A stretch of DNA of 34,077 nt, taken from a virus (lineage: Duplodnaviria > Heunggongvirae > Uroviricota > Caudoviricetes). The stretch's first letter is position 1. Each line of letters opens with the position of its first letter. A program made the translations under genes and the position numbers. Location of the stretch: the IMG/VR virus record IMGVR_UViG_2547132421_000005; one strand, written 5' to 3'. This document shows, piece after piece, positions 4,072 to 33,427 of this stretch. Under the pieces are notes generated by a model that was given only the letters and a program-made list of their open reading frames with translations, ran no database searches and was not told the DNA's origin.

Positions 4072-4686
4072 TTATCTAAAAGTCTTTCCACTTTTAACAT
4101 CTAGGTATATTCTGTTCGACAACGTCATTCCTCCGCAATATGTGAAATAGATGTTTTCACCCTTATTGCTTGATGCCATCCACCCTCCGATTTCCTTAAA
4201 ATCGCTTTCCGTGCAGACCCCTTCATTTATTAACTTCCTAGCTGCCGAAGAAAACTCTTTTTTGTATATACGGTAGTCATCAGATCCTTTGATTAAAGTA
4301 TCATCTCCGCTCGCATTTTCAGCAGGATCTGATGGCCTTTCACTGCTAAGATCACTAAGTTTAACCCATTCTGAAAACTTGCCATTAACGATTCCATTTT
4401 TTCTTGTGCAGGATTTATTACCTTCTTTAATATATTCGCTTTCCCCTCCAACACATGAGGCTGAATATGGCTCAGTTATACGAACCCATTCACCTTTTTT
4501 TTCTAGAAAATCTACGCCTTCCCTGAAAAATAGTTTCCCAGCCACTCCACATTTACTTGAAGGGCAGGTATGTCTTTCCGTTCGATCAACAACAACCCAT
4601 AGTTTTGATTCATTTTTTGCCATTGCCGATGGTATTTGAGATGAGACAATTAACGTAAGCCCTAAAATTAGTATTGATTTTTTCAT
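4072..4686 (-). CDS. Secreted/periplasmic Cys-rich protein of unknown function, 204 aa
   Basis: Track ORF; N-terminal signal peptide MKKSILILGLTLIVSSQIPSAMA then mature region with about 10 Cys; AT-rich; own terminator downstream. Confidence 0.65.
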   Translation of the reverse strand: MKKSILILGLTLIVSSQIPSAMAKNESKLWVVVDRTERHTCPSSKCGVAGKLFFREGVDFLEKKGEWVRITEPYSASCVGGESEYIKEGNKSCTRKNGIVNGKFSEWVKLSDLSSERPSDPAENASGDDTLIKGSDDYRIYKKEFSSAARKLINEGVCTESDFKEIGGWMASSNKGENIYFTYCGGMTLSNRIYLDVKSGKTFR

Positions 4687-13483: not shown

Positions 13484-13924
13484 ATGAAAAAACTAACCTT
13501 TGAAATTCGATCTCCAGCACATCAGCAAAACGCTATTCACGCAGTACAGCAAATCCTTCCAGACCCAACCAAACCAATCGTAGTAACCATTCAGGAACGC
13601 AACCGCAGCTTAGACCAAAACAGGAAGCTATGGGCCTGCTTAGGTGACGTCTCTCGTCAGGTTGAATGGCATGGTCGCTGGCTGGATGCAGAAAGCTGGA
13701 AGTGTGTGTTTACCGCAGCATTAAAGCAGCAGGATGTTGTTCCTAACCTTGCCGGGAATGGCTTTGTGGTAATAGGCCAGTCAACCAGCAGGATGCGTGT
13801 AGGCGAATTTGCGGAGCTATTAGAGCTTATACAGGCATTCGGTACAGAGCGTGGCGTTAAGTGGTCAGACGAAGCGAGACTGGCTCTGGAGTGGAAAGCG
13901 AGATGGGGAGATCGGGCTGCATGA
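13484..13924 (+). CDS. ninB: NinB (Orf-family recombination mediator), 146 aa
   Basis: Internal ATG of track ORF 13466..13924 (MKKLTFEIRSPAHQQNAIHAVQQILPDPTKPIVVTIQERNRSLDQNRKLWA...). Confidence 0.9.
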   Translation: MKKLTFEIRSPAHQQNAIHAVQQILPDPTKPIVVTIQERNRSLDQNRKLWACLGDVSRQVEWHGRWLDAESWKCVFTAALKQQDVVPNLAGNGFVVIGQSTSRMRVGEFAELLELIQAFGTERGVKWSDEARLALEWKARWGDRAA

Positions 13925-14452
13925 CTATCAAATCAAATACGCCAGCACACGACAAGGACTGCTGGCAAACGAACGCCGCTTTGGCTTTTTGATGCACTGG
14001 ATATTGAGTTTGGATTCTGGCTGGATTCGGCAGCGAGCGACAAAAATGCTCTGTGTGCTCACTGGCTAACTGAGGCCGACGACGCGCTCAATTCTGAGTG
14101 GGTAAGCCACGGTGCAATCTGGAATAACCCACCGTACAGCAATATCAGGCCGTGGGTGGAAAAAGCTGCTGAGCAGTGCATACAACAGCAACAGACGGTA
14201 GTTATGCTTGTGCCAGAGGATATGTCAGTCGGATGGTTCAGCAAGGCTCTGGAGAGTGTCGACGAAGTTCGCATTATCACTGATGGACGGATTAATTTTA
14301 TCGAACCATCGACAGGGCTGGAGAAGAAGGGAAACAGCAAAGGCTCCATGCTGCTGATTTGGCGACCGTTCATCAGTCCTCGACGGATGTTTACTACCGT
14401 ATCCAAAGCGGCATTGATGGCGATCGGGCAGGGCGTCAGGAGGGCGGCATGA
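13921..14452 (+). pseudogene. Phage Dam-like DNA N6-adenine methyltransferase, disrupted by a +1 frameshift (apparent 4-bp tandem duplication aacg-aacg at 13968-13975)
   Basis: ATG at 13921 overlaps the ninB stop; frame 1 reads MTIKSNTPAHDKDCWQTNAALAF then stop; frame 2 continues PLWLFDALDIEFGF...AIWNNPPYSNIRPWVEKAAEQ... with the NPPY catalytic motif, to 14452. Removing one aacg copy gives a continuous ...DCWQTPLWLFDALD... reading. Confidence 0.7.
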
Positions 14453-14625
14453 GGCGACAGCGACGAAGTTTCACCGACATCATCTGCGAAAACTGCAAAT
14501 ACCTTCCAACGAAACGCTCCAGAAATAAACGCAAGCCAATCCCAAAAGAATCTGACGTAAAAACCTTCAATTACACAGCTCACCTGTGGGATATCCGGTG
14601 GCTAAGATATCGTGCGAGGAAATGA
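14449..14625 (+). CDS. ninE: NinE, 58 aa
   Basis: Internal ATG of track ORF 14359..14625: [52 protein letters not shown]; start overlaps the Dam-like stop (ATGA). Confidence 0.8.
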
Positions 14626-15175: not shown

Positions 15176-15537
15176 GTGAATACCTACAGCATCACATTAC
15201 CCTGGCCTCCGAGCAATAATCGCTATTACCGCCATAATCGCGGGCGCACGCACGTCAGCGCAGAGGGGCAGGCATACCGCGATAACGTCGCCCGAATCAT
15301 TAAAAACGCAATGCTGGATATCGGCCTGGCTATGCCTGTGAAAATCCGCATTGAGTGCCACATGCCGGATCGCCGTCGCCGTGACCTGGATAATCTGCAA
15401 AAAGCCGCTTTTGACGCACTCACTAAAGCAGGTTTCTAGCTGGATGATGCTCAGGTCGTTGATTACCGCGTTGTGAAGATGCCTGTTACCAAAGGTGGGA
15501 GGCTGGAACTGACCATCACCGAAATGGGGAATGAATG
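15176..15537 (+). pseudogene. rusA: RusA Holliday-junction resolvase interrupted by an in-frame amber codon (TAG at 15437-15439, codon 88)
   Basis: Track ORF 15176..15439 stops after ...DALTKAGF; the same frame continues [32 protein letters not shown] to a TGA at 15535-15537, which I recognise as the RusA C-terminus. Confidence 0.75.
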
Positions 15538-15675
15538 ATGTTTGAGTTTAATATGGCAGAACTTCTTCGCCACCGCTGGGGGCGTCTGCGCTTATATCGT
15601 TTCCCCGGTTCTGTTTTGACCGATTACCGAATACTGAAGAATTACGCCAAAACACTGACAGGAGCAGGAGTATGA
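15538..15675 (+). CDS. ylcG: YlcG-like small protein, 45 aa (not in track)
   Basis: My own translation: MFEFNMAELLRHRWGRLRLYRFPGSVLTDYRILKNYAKTLTGAGV; ATG overlaps the rusA stop. Hand-read. Confidence 0.55.
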   Translation: MFEFNMAELLRHRWGRLRLYRFPGSVLTDYRILKNYAKTLTGAGV

Positions 15676-16293: not shown

Positions 16294-16818
16294 TTATTGT
16301 TTAACCCATAATAATTCATTGACATTGAATCCCAACTTTTGAGCGGTTCGCACATAGTCTGCTTTTACTTTATCTGGAATAGTTGGGGTCCTTGCCAGAA
16401 TCCATAGGTATTCTCTGTTCGGACCACTGACAAGAGCATACTTATACTCATCATCCAGTTTGATTACATTATAGCCACCATAGAAGGGGCCAAAAAACGA
16501 AACCTTCAATGCTGCAGTTTTAGTATCTCCAGTAAAGTATGCTTTACCTTCGCTCTCGCTCCATTTATTTTTCGTTGGATCGTATCCACGGTTAAGTACA
16601 CGAATCCCTCCGTCGTTCCGTTTTCCATAAGTAGCGCTGACCTGTTCCAGACCACGTTCGAACCGGTTCTCGAGGCGAGCTATTTCATACCATTTTCCGA
16701 GGTAGCGGTTGGCGTCAAAATTTGTAATCGGCTGCACACCTTTAGGTGGTGTCGGGGCCTTACATGCTATAAGAGTGAAAGAGAGTGCAATGCCAGTCAA
16801 CACAGGCCATAACTTCAT
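16294..16818 (-). CDS. blc: Blc-like outer-membrane lipocalin lipoprotein, 174 aa
   Basis: Track ORF; signal peptide plus lipobox LIAC; YLGKWYEIARLENRFERGLEQVSATY is the lipocalin signature of Blc. Confidence 0.85.
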   Translation of the reverse strand: MKLWPVLTGIALSFTLIACKAPTPPKGVQPITNFDANRYLGKWYEIARLENRFERGLEQVSATYGKRNDGGIRVLNRGYDPTKNKWSESEGKAYFTGDTKTAALKVSFFGPFYGGYNVIKLDDEYKYALVSGPNREYLWILARTPTIPDKVKADYVRTAQKLGFNVNELLWVKQ

Positions 16819-17010
16819 AATAAATCCTGTACTTTTGATAGTTGAGAGTAAGTATGAAAGATAGATGATTACGACCGATCACTTAAAGAACTTTCATACT
16901 ATATTAGGAATAGTCCATAACAGAAAAATTGTCAGTGATGACGCCAGAAAGGCAATTTATTCCGTGCACTACACAGTTTATGTGTTAATGAATTAGTCAA
17001 GGGGGAGAAT

Positions 17011-17970
17011 ATGATAAAAAAACCTGTGATTGGAATCAGCGGTTGTTTGGCCGGTTCTGCTGTTCGTTTTGATGGTGGTCACAAAAGAGCTGACTTTTTA
17101 ATGGACAAATTAGTGGAATGGGTAACATTCAGACCAGTATGTCCGGAAATGGCTATAGGGCTGCCAGTTCCGCGTCCTGCTCTACGTCTTGTGCGCTCGA
17201 TGCAAGGAAATATACGGATGTGTTTCAGCCACGACCAGAATGAGGATGTGACAGAGAGAATGACAGAGTTTAGTCGTTCTTATATGGACAAATTAAAGGA
17301 TGTATCGGGGTTTGTGGTTTGTGCTAAATCTCCCAGCTGTGGCATGGAGCGCGTGCGTGTCTATGATGAAAATGGTAATCGAGGTCGTAAAGATGGAGTG
17401 GGACTATTTACGAGCACTTTGATGGAAAAGTTTTCCTGGCTACCGGTTGAAGAGGATGGGCGATTACATGATCCAGTGCTTCGTGAGAATTTTGTTGAAA
17501 GAGTTTTTGCTTTGCATGAGCTCAATCACCTTTACAAGGAGAAATTATCAAGAAGAGAGTTATTAGCTTTTCATAGTCGTTATAAGCTTCAGTTGTTGGC
17601 GCATAGTCAGGCAGGCTATAAAGATATGGGACCATTTGTGGCTGCAATACACGAGTGGGCGGACCTTGAATCATACTTTGAGGTGTATCGTGATAAGCTG
17701 ATGGCGATTCTCAGAAAACCTGCATCACGTAAAAATCACACGAATGTGCTGATGCATATACAGGGGTATTTTAGTAACTACTTAAGTACACGCCAGCGTA
17801 AAGAGTTGAGCGAGGTTATACTTAACTATCGTTCTGGCACATTACCTCTTCTTGCGCCGTTGACTCTGCTGAAGCATTATCTGGGTGAGTATCCTAATGA
17901 TTACTTGCTTACACAGAATTACTTCGATCCCTATCCGGACGAACTGGCTCTAAGACTGATGGTAAATTAA
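17011..17970 (+). CDS. DUF523-DUF1722 fusion protein (TudS/RudS-like thiouracil/4-thiouridine desulfidase family), 319 aa
   Basis: Track ORF; N-terminal Cys-rich DUF523-like region (GISGCLAG...CPE...SPSCG) and YbgA-like C-terminal half; family assignment from memory. Confidence 0.7.
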   Translation: MIKKPVIGISGCLAGSAVRFDGGHKRADFLMDKLVEWVTFRPVCPEMAIGLPVPRPALRLVRSMQGNIRMCFSHDQNEDVTERMTEFSRSYMDKLKDVSGFVVCAKSPSCGMERVRVYDENGNRGRKDGVGLFTSTLMEKFSWLPVEEDGRLHDPVLRENFVERVFALHELNHLYKEKLSRRELLAFHSRYKLQLLAHSQAGYKDMGPFVAAIHEWADLESYFEVYRDKLMAILRKPASRKNHTNVLMHIQGYFSNYLSTRQRKELSEVILNYRSGTLPLLAPLTLLKHYLGEYPNDYLLTQNYFDPYPDELALRLMVN

Positions 17971-18312
17971 TTGTATGCGATATCATCCAAAAGGATGAGT
18001 TCCTGCATGCAGGATATTTACAATCGTAAAAACTACACTATGATACCCAGAGTGTCAGTTTGTATAAAAACTCTGTTTACGCTGAAGAAACAATTGAGAT
18101 GCAACTTAAAGTTGGTAAACATGCCAGTCAAAATATATAATATTATGATTCCACGCAGCTATATATAATATAACAGATTGGTTTAATAATTTGTCTTTGT
18201 GAGTTAAATACATAATTTTATACTTGTGATGCAATGAAATTTTCCTTATTGTTGAACTGGCGAATATTGATTTTCCACCTATACTTACCTGGTGTAACCC
18301 CAATGATATCAG

Positions 18313-19053
18313 GTGGATAATATGCCATACATATGTTCTATCATTTTGGTGTTGAACTCGTTTGATGTCCGAATCGGTAAAGAAGATATTTTGTTTAAAA
18401 AAGGAAGTGCTGTTCTCATTGATTACAATTTAAAAGATTTTTTTTCATCAAATATAGATCATGTAATGATCGTAGATGTTGAAGAGAAAACAGTTAATGA
18501 TTTCTTTAAAAGCAACACACTCTCACCTTTTTCTGTAAGAAGGTTTTATCCGGCATACTTGATGGTGGAATGTGAAGATTTTTCATTGTTAAAGAACTTG
18601 ATTGCATGCTTGAATTGTGATGGCAGAACTGTGGATTTTGTTAGAAATCAAATATCACTTGCATGTCTTGCTATCTTATCTTCAGAGAAAATAGTGCAAA
18701 GTTTTTTATTTGGATGTCTTAATAGTTTAGGAAGTAAAGTTAAGGCTATTATTCACACGGATATATCTGCAGCATGGAGACTTTGTGATATATCTTCAAG
18801 ACTGTATCTGAGTGAAAGTCTGTTAAAAAGAAAATTAAAGCACGAAGGCTTATCATTTAGTAAGTTAATTCTTGAAGAGCGAATGGTGATGGCGGAAAGG
18901 TTATTAAGCTACAATTTATATTCTGTTGGAAAAGTTGCTGAGATATGCGGTTATGAAAACACGTCATATTTTGTAAGTGTTTTCAGAAGGTATTTTGGTG
19001 TTCCTCCCCATCAATATTCATCAAGATTTTTTTTAGAAAAAGACATGATGTAA
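18313..19053 (+). CDS. AraC-family transcriptional regulator (AppY/EnvY-like), 246 aa
   Basis: Track ORF; C-terminal AraC HTH (LSESLLKRKLKHEGLSFSKLILEERMVMAERLL...VGKVAEICGYENTSYFVSVFRRYFGVPPHQY); strongly AT-rich. Confidence 0.8.
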   Translation: MDNMPYICSIILVLNSFDVRIGKEDILFKKGSAVLIDYNLKDFFSSNIDHVMIVDVEEKTVNDFFKSNTLSPFSVRRFYPAYLMVECEDFSLLKNLIACLNCDGRTVDFVRNQISLACLAILSSEKIVQSFLFGCLNSLGSKVKAIIHTDISAAWRLCDISSRLYLSESLLKRKLKHEGLSFSKLILEERMVMAERLLSYNLYSVGKVAEICGYENTSYFVSVFRRYFGVPPHQYSSRFFLEKDMM

Positions 19054-19296: not shown

Positions 19297-19361
19297 TGAT
19301 CTTACCCAGCAATAGTGGACACGCGGCTAAGTGAGTAAACTCTCAGTCAGAGGTGACTCAC

Positions 19362-19661
19362 ATGACAAAAACAGTATCAACCAGTAAAAAACCCCGTAAA
19401 CAGCATTCGCCTGAATTTCGCAGTGAAGCCCTGAAGCTTGCTGAACGCATCGGTGTTACTGCCGCAGCCCGTGAACTCAGCCTGTATGAATCACAGCTCT
19501 ACAACTGGCGCAGTAAACAGCAAAATCAGCAGACGTCTTCTGAACGTGAACTGGAGATGTCTACCGAGATTGCACGTCTCAAACGCCAGCTGGCAGAACG
19601 GGATGAAGAGCTGGCTATCCTCCAAAAGGCCGCGACATACTTCGCGAAGCGCCTGAAATGA
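19362..19661 (+). CDS. insE: IS3 transposase OrfA (InsE), 99 aa
   Basis: Track ORF 19353..19661; [54 protein letters not shown]. Confidence 0.9.
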
Positions 19662-20524
19662 AGTATGTCTTTATTGAAAAACATCAGGCTGAGTTCAGCA
19701 TCAAAGCAATGTGCCGCGTGCTCCGGGTGGCCCGCAGCGGCTGGTATACGTGGTGTCAGCGGCGGACAAGGATAAGCACGCGTCAGCAGTTCCGCCAACA
19801 CTGCGACAGCGTTGTCCTCGCGGCTTTTACCCGGTCAAAACAGCGTTACGGTGCCCCACGCCTGACGGATGAACTGCGTGCTCAGGGTTACCCCTTTAAC
19901 GTAAAAACCGTGGCGGCAAGCCTGCGCCGTCAGGGACTGAGGGCAAAGGCCTCCCGGAAGTTCAGCCCGGTCAGCTACCGCGCACACGGCCTGCCTGTGT
20001 CAGAAAATCTGTTGGAGCAGGATTTTTACGCCAGTGGCCCGAACCAGAAGTGGGCAGGAGACATCACGTACTTACGTACAGATGAAGGCTGGCTGTATCT
20101 GGCAGTGGTCATTGACCTGTGGTCACGTGCCGTTATTGGCTGGTCAATGTCGCCACGCATGACGGCGCAACTGGCCTGCGATGCCCTGCAGATGGCGCTG
20201 TGGCGGCGTAAGAGGCCCCGGAACGTTATCGTTCACACGGACCGTGGAGGCCAGTACTGTTCAGCAGATTATCAGGCGCAACTGAAGCGGCATAATCTGC
20301 GTGGAAGTATGAGCGCAAAAGGTTGCTGCTACGATAATGCCTGCGTGGAAAGCTTCTTTCATTCGCTGAAAGTGGAATGTATCCATGGAGAACACTTTAT
20401 CAGCCGGGAAATAATGCGGGCAACGGTATTTAATTATATCGAATGTGATTACAATCGGTGGCGGCGGCACAGTTGGTGTGGCGGCCTCAGTCCGGAACAA
20501 TTTGAAAACCAGAACCTCGCTTAG
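19658..20524 (+). CDS. insF: IS3 transposase OrfB (InsF; normally made as an OrfAB frameshift fusion), 288 aa
   Basis: Track ORF; DDE integrase-core region ([31 protein letters not shown]...HTDRGGQY...). Confidence 0.9.
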
Positions 20525-20554
20525 GCCTGTGTCCATATTACGTGGGTAGGATCA

Positions 20555-20683
20555 AATGCAGCCTCCCCCCGACTGGCAGACACCGCTGAACGGGATTATT
20601 TCACCCTCCGGGAACGACTGGTAATGATGCAGGCCCAACTTGAAGGTGCTCAGCAATACATAACCGAGCAGTGTTTAAAGTAA
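20555..20683 (+). pseudogene. 3' remnant of the spanin genes Rz/Rz1 (5' part, endolysin and most of holin absent)
   Basis: Immediately after IS3: one frame gives MQPPPDWQTPLNGIISPSGNDW-stop (Rz1-like C-terminus), another gives ...RERLVMMQAQLEGAQQYITEQCLK-stop (Rz-like C-terminus). Hand-read. Confidence 0.6.
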
Positions 20684-20820
20684 AATCTTAACTACAATAT
20701 GATTCATTTTGATGATTGTTTCATAAGGAACAGTGAAGTAAGATCTAAGAGGAGTTAAATTTTATACAGTATAATCATAATATTGCAGCAAGGTGGTTAT
20801 AATTGAAAGAATATTTAGAT

Positions 20821-22278
20821 ATGAATACATCTCATGTAAGAGTTGTTACTCATATGTGTGGGTTCCTGGTTTGGCTCTATAGTCTTTCAATGTTGCCACC
20901 AATGGTTGTAGCATTGTTTTATAAAGAAAAAAGCCTGTTCGTTTTCTTTATAACTTTCGTTATATTTTTTTGCATTGGTGGCGGAGCGTGGTATACAACT
21001 AAGAAATCTGGCATTCAATTACGTACCCGTGATGGGTTTATTATAATTGTAATGTTTTGGATTTTGTTTTCTGTTATTAGTGCATTCCCTTTATGGATTG
21101 ACTCAGAACTTAATTTAACGTTCATTGATGCTCTGTTTGAAGGGGTTTCTGGAATAACAACAACAGGAGCAACTGTAATTGATGATGTTAGTTCATTACC
21201 TCGGGCATATTTGTACTATCGGTCACAGTTAAATTTTATAGGTGGTTTAGGAGTTATTGTTCTGGCGGTTGCTGTATTGCCATTATTGGGTATTGGTGGT
21301 ACAAAGCTTTATCAGTCAGAAATGCCGGGGCCATTTAAGGATGACAAACTCACTCCCCGCCTGGCCGATACGTCACGGACACTGTGGATAACTTATTCTT
21401 TATTAGGTATTGCTTGTATTGTCTGTTATAGACTTGCAGGAATGCCTTTGTTTGATGCTATTTGTCACGGGATTTCCACAGTTTCGCTTGGTGGTTTCTC
21501 AACTCATAGCGAGAGTATCGGATATTTTAATAACTATTTGGTTGAGCTGGTGGCTGGTTCTTTTTCCCTGCTATCGGCTTTCAACTTCACTCTTTGGTAT
21601 ATTGTTATTAGCAGGAAAACGATAAAACCTTTAATCAGAGATATTGAACTTCGTTTCTTTCTGTTAATAGCCTTAGGGGTGATCATTGTTACCTCTTTCC
21701 AGGTCTGGCATATAGGTATGTATGACTTGCATGGAAGTTTTATTCATTCGTTTTTTCTTGCCAGCTCCATGCTCACTGATAATGGTTTAGCTACGCAGGA
21801 TTATGCAAACTGGCCCACGCACACGATAGTGTTTTTGCTGTCGTCAAGTTTCTTTGGGGGATGTATAGGTTCAACTTGTGGTGGAATTAAGTCACTTCGA
21901 TTTCTTATACTTTTCAAACAAAGCAAACACGAGATAAATCAGCTTTCTCATCCCAGAGCGTTGTTGAGTGTAAATGTAGGAGGGAAGATAGTTACAGATC
22001 GTGTAATGAGGTCTGTATGGAGTTTCTTTTTTCTTTATACTCTCTTCACGGTGTTTTTTATACTGGTGTTAAATGGTATGGGATATGATTTTCTTACATC
22101 ATTTGCAACAGTGGCTGCATGTATTAATAATATGGGATTAGGTTTTGGGGCTACTGCATCGTCATTCGGAGTGCTTAATGACATTGCAAAATATTTAATG
22201 TGCATAGCTATGATTCTTGGTCGCCTTGAAATTTATCCTGTTATTATATTGTTTTCAGGTTTTTTTTGGCGCTCCTAA
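20821..22278 (+). CDS. trkG: TrkG/TrkH-family K+ uptake membrane protein, 485 aa
   Basis: Internal ATG of track ORF 20803..22278 (MNTSHVRVVTHMCGFLVWLYSLSMLPPMVVALFYK...), recognised as the Rac-prophage trkG type; polytopic membrane protein; AT-rich. Confidence 0.9.
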   Translation: MNTSHVRVVTHMCGFLVWLYSLSMLPPMVVALFYKEKSLFVFFITFVIFFCIGGGAWYTTKKSGIQLRTRDGFIIIVMFWILFSVISAFPLWIDSELNLTFIDALFEGVSGITTTGATVIDDVSSLPRAYLYYRSQLNFIGGLGVIVLAVAVLPLLGIGGTKLYQSEMPGPFKDDKLTPRLADTSRTLWITYSLLGIACIVCYRLAGMPLFDAICHGISTVSLGGFSTHSESIGYFNNYLVELVAGSFSLLSAFNFTLWYIVISRKTIKPLIRDIELRFFLLIALGVIIVTSFQVWHIGMYDLHGSFIHSFFLASSMLTDNGLATQDYANWPTHTIVFLLSSSFFGGCIGSTCGGIKSLRFLILFKQSKHEINQLSHPRALLSVNVGGKIVTDRVMRSVWSFFFLYTLFTVFFILVLNGMGYDFLTSFATVAACINNMGLGFGATASSFGVLNDIAKYLMCIAMILGRLEIYPVIILFSGFFWRS

Positions 22279-22415
22279 TATATGGCTGATTTATAATTGT
22301 GAGTTTAATATTATATTGACTCACTCATTGATCCAATACCTAACTTTACCAGCAACACCTCCGCCCCCAGTAGCACTGGCTGCTGGGGTGCGTTTTATTC
22401 ATAAAGCAAGGCTGT

Positions 22416-23204
22416 ATGAGCGAGAAATTAAAGATAGTCTATCGCCCATTACAAGAATTGTCACCGTATGCGCACAACGCCAGGACGCACAGTACTGAGC
22501 AGGTGGCACAACTGGTAGAAAGTATTAAGCAATTCGGCTGGACTAATCCGGTGCTGATTGACGAAAAGGGCGAAATTATTGCGGGTCACGGTCGTGTTAT
22601 GGCGTCTGAAATGCTCAAAATGGATTCTGTTCCGGTCATTGTTCTGTCTGGCCTGACGGATGAGCAGAAAAAGGCGTACCGCCTGGCAGATAATCGCCTA
22701 CCGATGAATGCTGGCTGGGATGAAGATCTGTTGCGGATGGAGCTGTCGGACCTAATCAATGCTGATTTTGATGTCTCCCTGACAGGCTTCGGCCCGACAG
22801 AAATTGATGAACTGTTGACGGATGTTTTGCCCGGTACAGGAAATAAGGAGGAGCCGTATACGACGAAAATTGATACGCCTGTTTATGAGCCGTCGGGCGG
22901 TAAACCGGATATCAGTGAACTGTACGACGATACGAAAACTCAGGAGCTGATCAGCCGGATACGTTCGGCGTCCCTTGAGCCTGATATTGAGAAATTCCTC
23001 CTGTGTGCGGCAGAACGTCACACGGTGTTTAATTTCAGCAGAATTGCGGACTATTACGCTCATGCCCCCGCTGAAATTCAGTGCCTTTTCGAGGAGTCGG
23101 CGCTGGTGATCATTGATTATCAGCAGGCTATTGAAAATGGATTTGTCCGAATGACGCAGCGCATGGTGGCGATCATGCATAGCGGGGAGGAGGAATATGC
23201 GTGA
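22416..23204 (+). CDS. ParB-like nuclease (ParB N-terminal/sulfiredoxin-fold) domain protein, 262 aa
   Basis: Track ORF; NPVLIDEKGEIIAGHGRVMA contains the ParB-N GxGR-type motif. Confidence 0.7.
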   Translation: MSEKLKIVYRPLQELSPYAHNARTHSTEQVAQLVESIKQFGWTNPVLIDEKGEIIAGHGRVMASEMLKMDSVPVIVLSGLTDEQKKAYRLADNRLPMNAGWDEDLLRMELSDLINADFDVSLTGFGPTEIDELLTDVLPGTGNKEEPYTTKIDTPVYEPSGGKPDISELYDDTKTQELISRIRSASLEPDIEKFLLCAAERHTVFNFSRIADYYAHAPAEIQCLFEESALVIIDYQQAIENGFVRMTQRMVAIMHSGEEEYA

Positions 23205-32659: not shown

Positions 32660-32714
32660 GGTGATGCTGCCAACTTACTGATTTAGTGTATGATGGTGTT
32701 TTTGAGGTGCTCCA

Positions 32715-32990
32715 GTGGCTTCTGTTTCTATCAGCTGTCCCTCCTGTTCAGCTACTGACGGGGTGGTGCGTAACGGCAAAAGCACCGCCGGACATCAGCG
32801 CTATCTCTGCTCTCACTGCCGTAAAACATGGCAACTGCAGTTCACTTACACCGCTTCTCAACCCGGTACGCACCAGAAAATCATTGATATGGCCATGAAT
32901 GGCGTTGGATGCCGGGCAACAGCCCGCATTATGGGCGTTGGCCTCAACACGATTTTACGTCACTTAAAAAACTCAGGCCGCAGTCGGTAA
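32715..32990 (+). CDS. insA: IS1 InsA, 91 aa
   Basis: Track ORF; [43 protein letters not shown]. Confidence 0.9.
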
Positions 32991-33412
32991 CCTCGCGCAT
33001 ACAGCCGGGCAGTGACGTCATCGTCTGCGCGGAAATGGACGAACAGTGGGGCTATGTCGGGGCTAAATCGCGCCAGCGCTGGCTGTTTTACGCGTATGAC
33101 AGGCTCCGGAAGACGGTTGTTGCGCACGTATTCGGTGAACGCACTATGGCGACGCTGGGGCGTCTTCTGAGCCTGCTGTCGGCCTTTGACGTGGTGATAT
33201 GGATGACGGATGGCTGGCCGCTGTATGAATCCCGCCTGAAGGGAAAGCTGCACGTAATCAGCAAGCGATATACGCAGCGAATTGAGCGGCATAACCTGAA
33301 TCTGAGGCAGCACCTGGCACGGCTGGGACGGAAGTCGCTGTCGTTCTCAAAATCGGTGGAGCTGCATGACAAAGTCATCGGGCATTATCTGAACATAAAA
33401 CACTATCAATAA
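32909..33412 (+). CDS. insB: IS1 InsB reading frame (normally expressed as an InsAB' frameshift fusion)
   Basis: Track ORF; overlaps the 3' end of insA in the -1 frame, as in IS1. Confidence 0.85.
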
Positions 33413-33427
33413 GTTGGAGTCATTACC

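Follow-up and report, generated by a model that had tools for sequence, protein, structure and literature searches.

A 4-bp tandem duplication in the Dam-type adenine methyltransferase gene of a defective lambdoid prophage

The window, by which we mean the whole stretch of 34,077 nucleotides that was analysed (IMG/VR record IMGVR_UViG_2547132421_000005), belongs to an E. coli prophage that adjoins ybhC, at the lambda attachment site, and contains a lambdoid nin region with the gene order ren, ninB, methyltransferase, ninE, ninX, ninG remnant, rusA and Q. Many lambdoid phages carry a small Dam-type methyltransferase between ninB and ninE, and the window holds in this slot, on the plus strand, a pseudogene of a phage N-6-adenine methyltransferase (Dam-type, PF05869/TIGR01712; 13921-14452), assigned from its sequence and translation, from profile scores and from the label that PGAP gives to the same locus in other genomes. 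The pseudogene measures 532 nt, as opposed to the 528 nt expected. Its upstream neighbour on the same strand, ninB (13484-13924), which encodes a recombination protein, is intact according to translation and annotation, and the ninB stop (TGA, 13922-13924) overlaps the methyltransferase start codon (ATG, 13921-13923) in an ATGA at 13921-13924, just as an earlier reading of the letters alone (hereafter the sequence-only reading) had stated. A second ATGA on the plus strand (14449-14452) joins the methyltransferase stop to the start of ninE (14449-14625, plus strand), which has an AGGAGG of its own at 14438-14443 and could therefore be translated without being coupled to the broken gene. Such ATGA-type overlaps are typical of closely packed nin regions (PMC8022706).

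The start frame of the methyltransferase gene encodes MTIKSNTPAHDKDCWQT, followed by six out-of-frame residues (NAALAF) and a premature TGA on the plus strand at 13990-13992, giving 23 codons in all, 17 native and six out of frame. The sequence-only reading was thus right about an early stop in the frame of the ATG but quoted a slightly too short peptide, since six codons run past the shift before the TGA is reached. The frameshift is caused by a perfect 4-bp tandem duplication, AACG-AACG, at 13968-13975 (plus strand), evident in the sequence and in the alignment to orthologues, where it is placed as 'ins4(AACG)' after wild-type nt 47. It changes AACG into AACGAACG and falls exactly between the codons for Thr17 and Pro18, the inserted copy not being distinguishable from the original one. 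From here on the methyltransferase body (13976-14452, plus strand) is encoded in a frame displaced by +1 from that of the start codon, and this +1 frame is open from 13925 to 14452 and includes the catalytic NPPY motif (AAC CCA CCG TAC, 14126-14137, plus strand). The first ATG, GTG or TTG of the body frame is a GTG at 14156, downstream of NPPY, and the 98-aa ORF that it opens (14156-14452) matches PF05869 at profile positions 77-167 only. No uninterrupted ORF therefore spans the whole domain, the frameshift at 13968-13975 and the stop at 13990-13992 standing in its way; when one AACG is removed in silico, an unbroken ORF of 528 nt and 175 aa is obtained, reading ...DCWQTPLWLFDALD... The coordinates of the repeat, a +1 frame that encodes the methyltransferase body with NPPY, and the continuity of the ORF after deletion of one AACG all bear out what had been read from the letters.

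The repaired 175-aa protein matches both family profiles over their full length: PF05869 ('Dam') with 218.9 bits at profile positions 1-167 of 169 (curated cut-off 28.1 bits) and the TIGR01712 equivalog ('phage N-6-adenine-methyltransferase') with 266.1 bits at positions 1-165 of 165 (curated cut-off 97.05 bits). This protein was aligned with six diverse homologues, from phages of Proteus, Vibrio, Escherichia (T1-like), Fusobacterium, Lactococcus and Staphylococcus, and all seven sequences agree at W15, T17, P18 and N68-P69-P70-Y71. Both the (N/D)PPY motif and the N-terminal W-x-T-P motif are accordingly found in the window, NPPY being encoded intact though out of frame, while W-x-T-P is split by the duplication, with P18 lost in the actual reading frame. 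PF05869 was the sole Pfam match in the profile search, with no match to the orthodox Dam family (PF02086), and a sequence search of solved structures returned no relative of the repaired protein; the name 'Dam-like' fits by function and Pfam name only.

M.EcoVT2Dam (dam, H0105) of the Stx2 phage VT2-Sakai is identical to the repaired window protein at 174 of 175 positions, and its gene, as well as the 933W/Phi24B equivalent, belongs to the same family (PF05869/TIGR01712) and occupies the same ninB-ninE slot with ATGA overlaps; the window copy differs from it by the 4-bp duplication after codon 17 and by R89Q, and cannot encode the full protein. M.EcoVT2Dam is reported to be GATC-specific in a passage of PMC6602927 that cites Radlinska & Bujnicki 2001, and in lysogen cultures the Phi24B copy of the methyltransferase was found to be one of the expressed genes (PMC3342100). 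From the 99% identity to M.EcoVT2Dam, together with that passage of PMC6602927, we infer N6-adenine methylation of GATC for the ancestral allele only. The Dam of the E. coli host belongs to a different Pfam family (PF02086), and the phage protein, with 175 aa, is much smaller, but GATC is reported to be the methylation target of the wild-type form of the window gene too, so that the phage enzyme would be functionally redundant in E. coli.

Taken by itself, the twofold AACG repeat is statistically unremarkable, as the window contains 145 perfect 4-mer x2 repeats, versus about 129 in shuffled sequences, and five of them lie within the methyltransferase gene. It is the comparison with orthologues, and not the repeat itself, by which AACG-AACG is recognised as an insertion. 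A 76-nt query centred on the repeat and compared with 5,426 complete E. coli genomes gave 1,545 matching records from 1,537 of them. A clean single-copy match to this query corresponds to 94.7% identity, and 1,541 of the 1,545 records fall in the 90-95% identity band, the duplication being present in full in two records only; among phages, all 244 matching records have a single AACG. The prophage of ET474 lies at the same lambda attachment site with the same neighbours and is identical to the window over a 1,175-bp ninB-to-ninX query except for the 4 bp; its allele, with a single AACG, is annotated as an intact, functional protein of 175 aa (WP_001752315.1). The alignment with single-copy orthologues, including the difference of 4 bp alone from ET474, confirms the insertion that the sequence-only reading had postulated. 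A natural arrangement of two ORFs was rejected, because the orthologues are single ORFs with no such two-frame layout and because no start of the body frame precedes the GTG beyond NPPY.

Two complete genomes share the insertion exactly, that of PSJ-14, of human origin from Ecuador, and that of EC529, from chicken meat in Viet Nam; PGAP (NCBI) labels the CDS at this locus 'frameshifted' in each of them. The exact duplication-bearing 29-mer was found in four IMG/VR contigs, and nine further assemblies from NCBI, ENA and Logan, reached via the 98-aa downstream fragment, all carry 'ins4(AACG)', so that the allele is found in at least 15 other, independent assemblies (the two complete genomes and at least 13 more). 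Exact-pattern scans of GTDB species-representative genomes and of JGI metagenome contigs gave no duplication allele. Both complete genomes have an extra IS1 at the window junction 4473-4482, and PSJ-14 has in addition an ISEc22 inside a DUF2528 gene; identity of the window with either of them was rejected, and the window, having neither the IS1 nor the ISEc22, comes from a third strain. The family profiles, the identity to the VT2-Sakai enzyme, the ET474 allele and the PGAP label agree with the original claim of a Dam-type N6-adenine methyltransferase inactivated by a 4-bp duplication, and the pseudogene as such is already known, being flagged 'frameshifted' in public genome annotation (RefSeq/PGAP).

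The same methyltransferase gene has been broken independently elsewhere, by 1-bp insertions in three orthologues (L109, L112 and L133), and further broken orthologues have a 2-bp deletion (L135), a 1-bp deletion (L149) or several frame-breaking indels (L063). C-terminal fragments of 82 aa and 98 aa are deposited in public protein collections as 'phage N-6-adenine-methyltransferase'. The 492 contigs with the 82-aa fragment were rejected as a count of the AACG mutation, since they are mostly short contigs and others have different lesions; in six of the ten places shown, the 82-aa fragment begins at a contig end.

The prophage of the window is clearly defective. In the region at about 19353-20683, an IS3 element (about 19353-20524, with ORFs at 19353-19661 and 19658-20524) has taken the place of most of the lysis cassette, of which only Rz/Rz1 remnants are left, whereas essD-rrrD-Rz are intact at this place in the ET474 prophage. 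In rusA (15176-15538), the gene of a Holliday-junction resolvase, an internal stop interrupts the frame after 87 codons, and the rusA lesion of the near-identical ET474 prophage is a different one, namely a frameshift. A fragment of the ninG type is all that remains of this gene, and an IS1 copy (32660-33427) truncates the head/tail (structural) module. The segment from Q to the lysis region (16294-19053) carries cargo genes, one of the lipocalin family on the minus strand, one of the YbgA/DUF523-DUF1722 type and one with an HTH domain. In other carriers of the duplication allele, a porin gene stands after Q instead. Also inside the prophage, at 20803-22673, are trkG (a potassium transporter) and a ynaK-like ParB/Srx gene, both known from the Rac prophage of K-12.

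These results make it highly probable that the window holds a dead copy of a small Dam-type adenine methyltransferase gene, i.e., an ordinary pseudogene in a decaying prophage. The tandem duplication between the Thr17 and Pro18 codons would have arisen probably by replication slippage or a small-duplication error, and ribosomes starting at the normal ATG would lose the frame and terminate after 23 codons. The other 152 codons, among them those for the catalytic NPPY, would stay untranslated, and this motif has no in-frame start ahead of it; given the frameshift and the lack of a restart before NPPY, no active enzyme is expected from the window allele. The loss was probably tolerated because the prophage was already defective and, probably as well, because the host Dam already methylates GATC, the target of the wild-type enzyme. 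The broken allele would then have persisted and moved between related prophages by homologous recombination.

The number of times that the duplication arose is an issue of origin, compatible with the pseudogene reading. Three duplication haplotypes can be distinguished within the gene among the carriers, whose upstream P, ren and ninB genes show differing patches of clustered SNPs. The gene found after Q is one for a lipocalin in some carriers and one for a porin in others, corresponding to two prophage contexts. Apart from the duplication, the gene of one carrier (L009) does not differ from a common wild-type haplotype, that of L024, L057, L102 and L124. With at least three gene haplotypes, a carrier so close to the wild type and prophages that differ downstream of Q, it might be supposed that AACG is a mutational hotspot at which the duplication arose more than once. 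However, ninB of L009 is of the window type right up to the duplication, and wild-type carriers of its 3' haplotype differ at 13802-13901 (among the carriers listed in full), so that one crossover between 13976 and 14055 explains the combination of a window-type ninB with a wild-type 3' half. The upstream SNP clusters of the other carriers are likewise the usual lambdoid mosaic patches, and an origin of the duplication from a local template, a nearby AAACGAACGCC copy, was rejected, the only other match being a site with one mismatch 17 kb away, as expected by chance. Recurrent duplication at a hotspot thus appears unlikely, and we favour a duplication that arose once and was then passed on by mosaic recombination of the ordinary lambdoid kind.

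Most duplication alleles have R89Q in common (CGA to CAA, window 14190, repaired codon 89), which L009 lacks. In wild-type alleles, R89Q was found in ET474 only, among about 100 alleles sampled, which marks the ET474 haplotype as the progenitor. The presence of the allele on several mosaic backgrounds implies that it is not very recent, and the 'recent' inactivation suggested by the sequence-only reading is at odds with an allele shared by at least 15 other assemblies on several recombinant backgrounds.

Alternatively, the occurrence of at least three haplotypes in two prophage contexts could mean that the mutation recurred or that the broken form was selected, and not simple neutral decay. 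The broken allele may perhaps be favoured if a lysogen bears a cost for the additional GATC methylase that its prophage expresses; Dam overproduction disturbs mismatch repair, which suggests what this cost might be. We regard it as improbable, and more so than a hotspot, that recombination has carried a favoured broken allele from one co-resident lambdoid prophage to another, or that the one- and two-copy forms interconvert slowly and act as a crude switch.

Considerably less probable, and not supported, is a phase-variable switch proper, in which slippage of the AACG tract would toggle phage methylation on and off; it had been offered as the less likely option of the sequence-only reading. 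The likeness to phase-variable mod (phasevarion) genes consists in a tandem tetranucleotide repeat that sets the frame in the 5' part of a methyltransferase ORF, a suitable place for a switch, and among near-identical prophages both the two-copy form and its exact wild-type counterpart (the haplotype of ET474 and FG92-1) occur. Known phase-variable tracts, however, have many repeat units, while the ORF in the window has two, and the states seen are one and two copies, never three: all but two of the full-length matches in the 1,545 E. coli records are single-copy, as are the 244 phage records. Neither query nor pattern with three AACG copies gave any match in complete E. coli genomes or IMG/VR, and no tetranucleotide array of at least three copies occurs anywhere in the window. 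Unlike a hypermutable tract, moreover, the two-copy state is stably inherited: many assemblies, originating on different continents, share it, and it has been kept when recombination placed it on other backgrounds.

The premature stop stands in the context GCU UUU UGA U (13984-13993), within a T5 run (13986-13990). Ribosomes might be imagined to shift +1 at UUU UGA (13987-13992) and so produce a near-full-length enzyme, as in RF2 (prfB), whose 'shifty stop' the combination of a shifty P-site codon with a stop resembles. tRNA-Phe could re-pair on the UUU at 13988-13990, and with GAU as the next +1 codon the product would continue as ...FDALD... and reach 176 aa. Yet no Shine-Dalgarno-like stimulator is seen just upstream of 13987 on reading the sequence, and the two-frame layout is missing from virtually all orthologues and is therefore not an evolved feature; the product, moreover, would have TNAALAF in place of TPLWLF, with the invariant Pro18 lost and one residue gained. 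Low-level +1 slippage at the frame-0 stop in the T5 run is conceivable, but programmed recoding is even less credible than the switch. Last and least, an artefact of sequencing or assembly, the true sequence having one AACG, can be dismissed as next to impossible, since nothing specific speaks for it beyond indels being the commonest assembly errors, the site is not a homopolymer, and independent sequencing reproduces two copies, and not a single one, in the two complete genomes, the four IMG/VR contigs and the nine further assemblies.

With the locus read as an ordinary pseudogene, its correct annotation is a pseudogene, and not two genes or a truncated methylase, and the finding has little significance beyond that. 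Fragment entries deposited under the full family name could, however, mislead methylome or restriction-modification inventories, and the locus provides a tidy case of one inactivating allele moving between mosaic lambdoid prophages.
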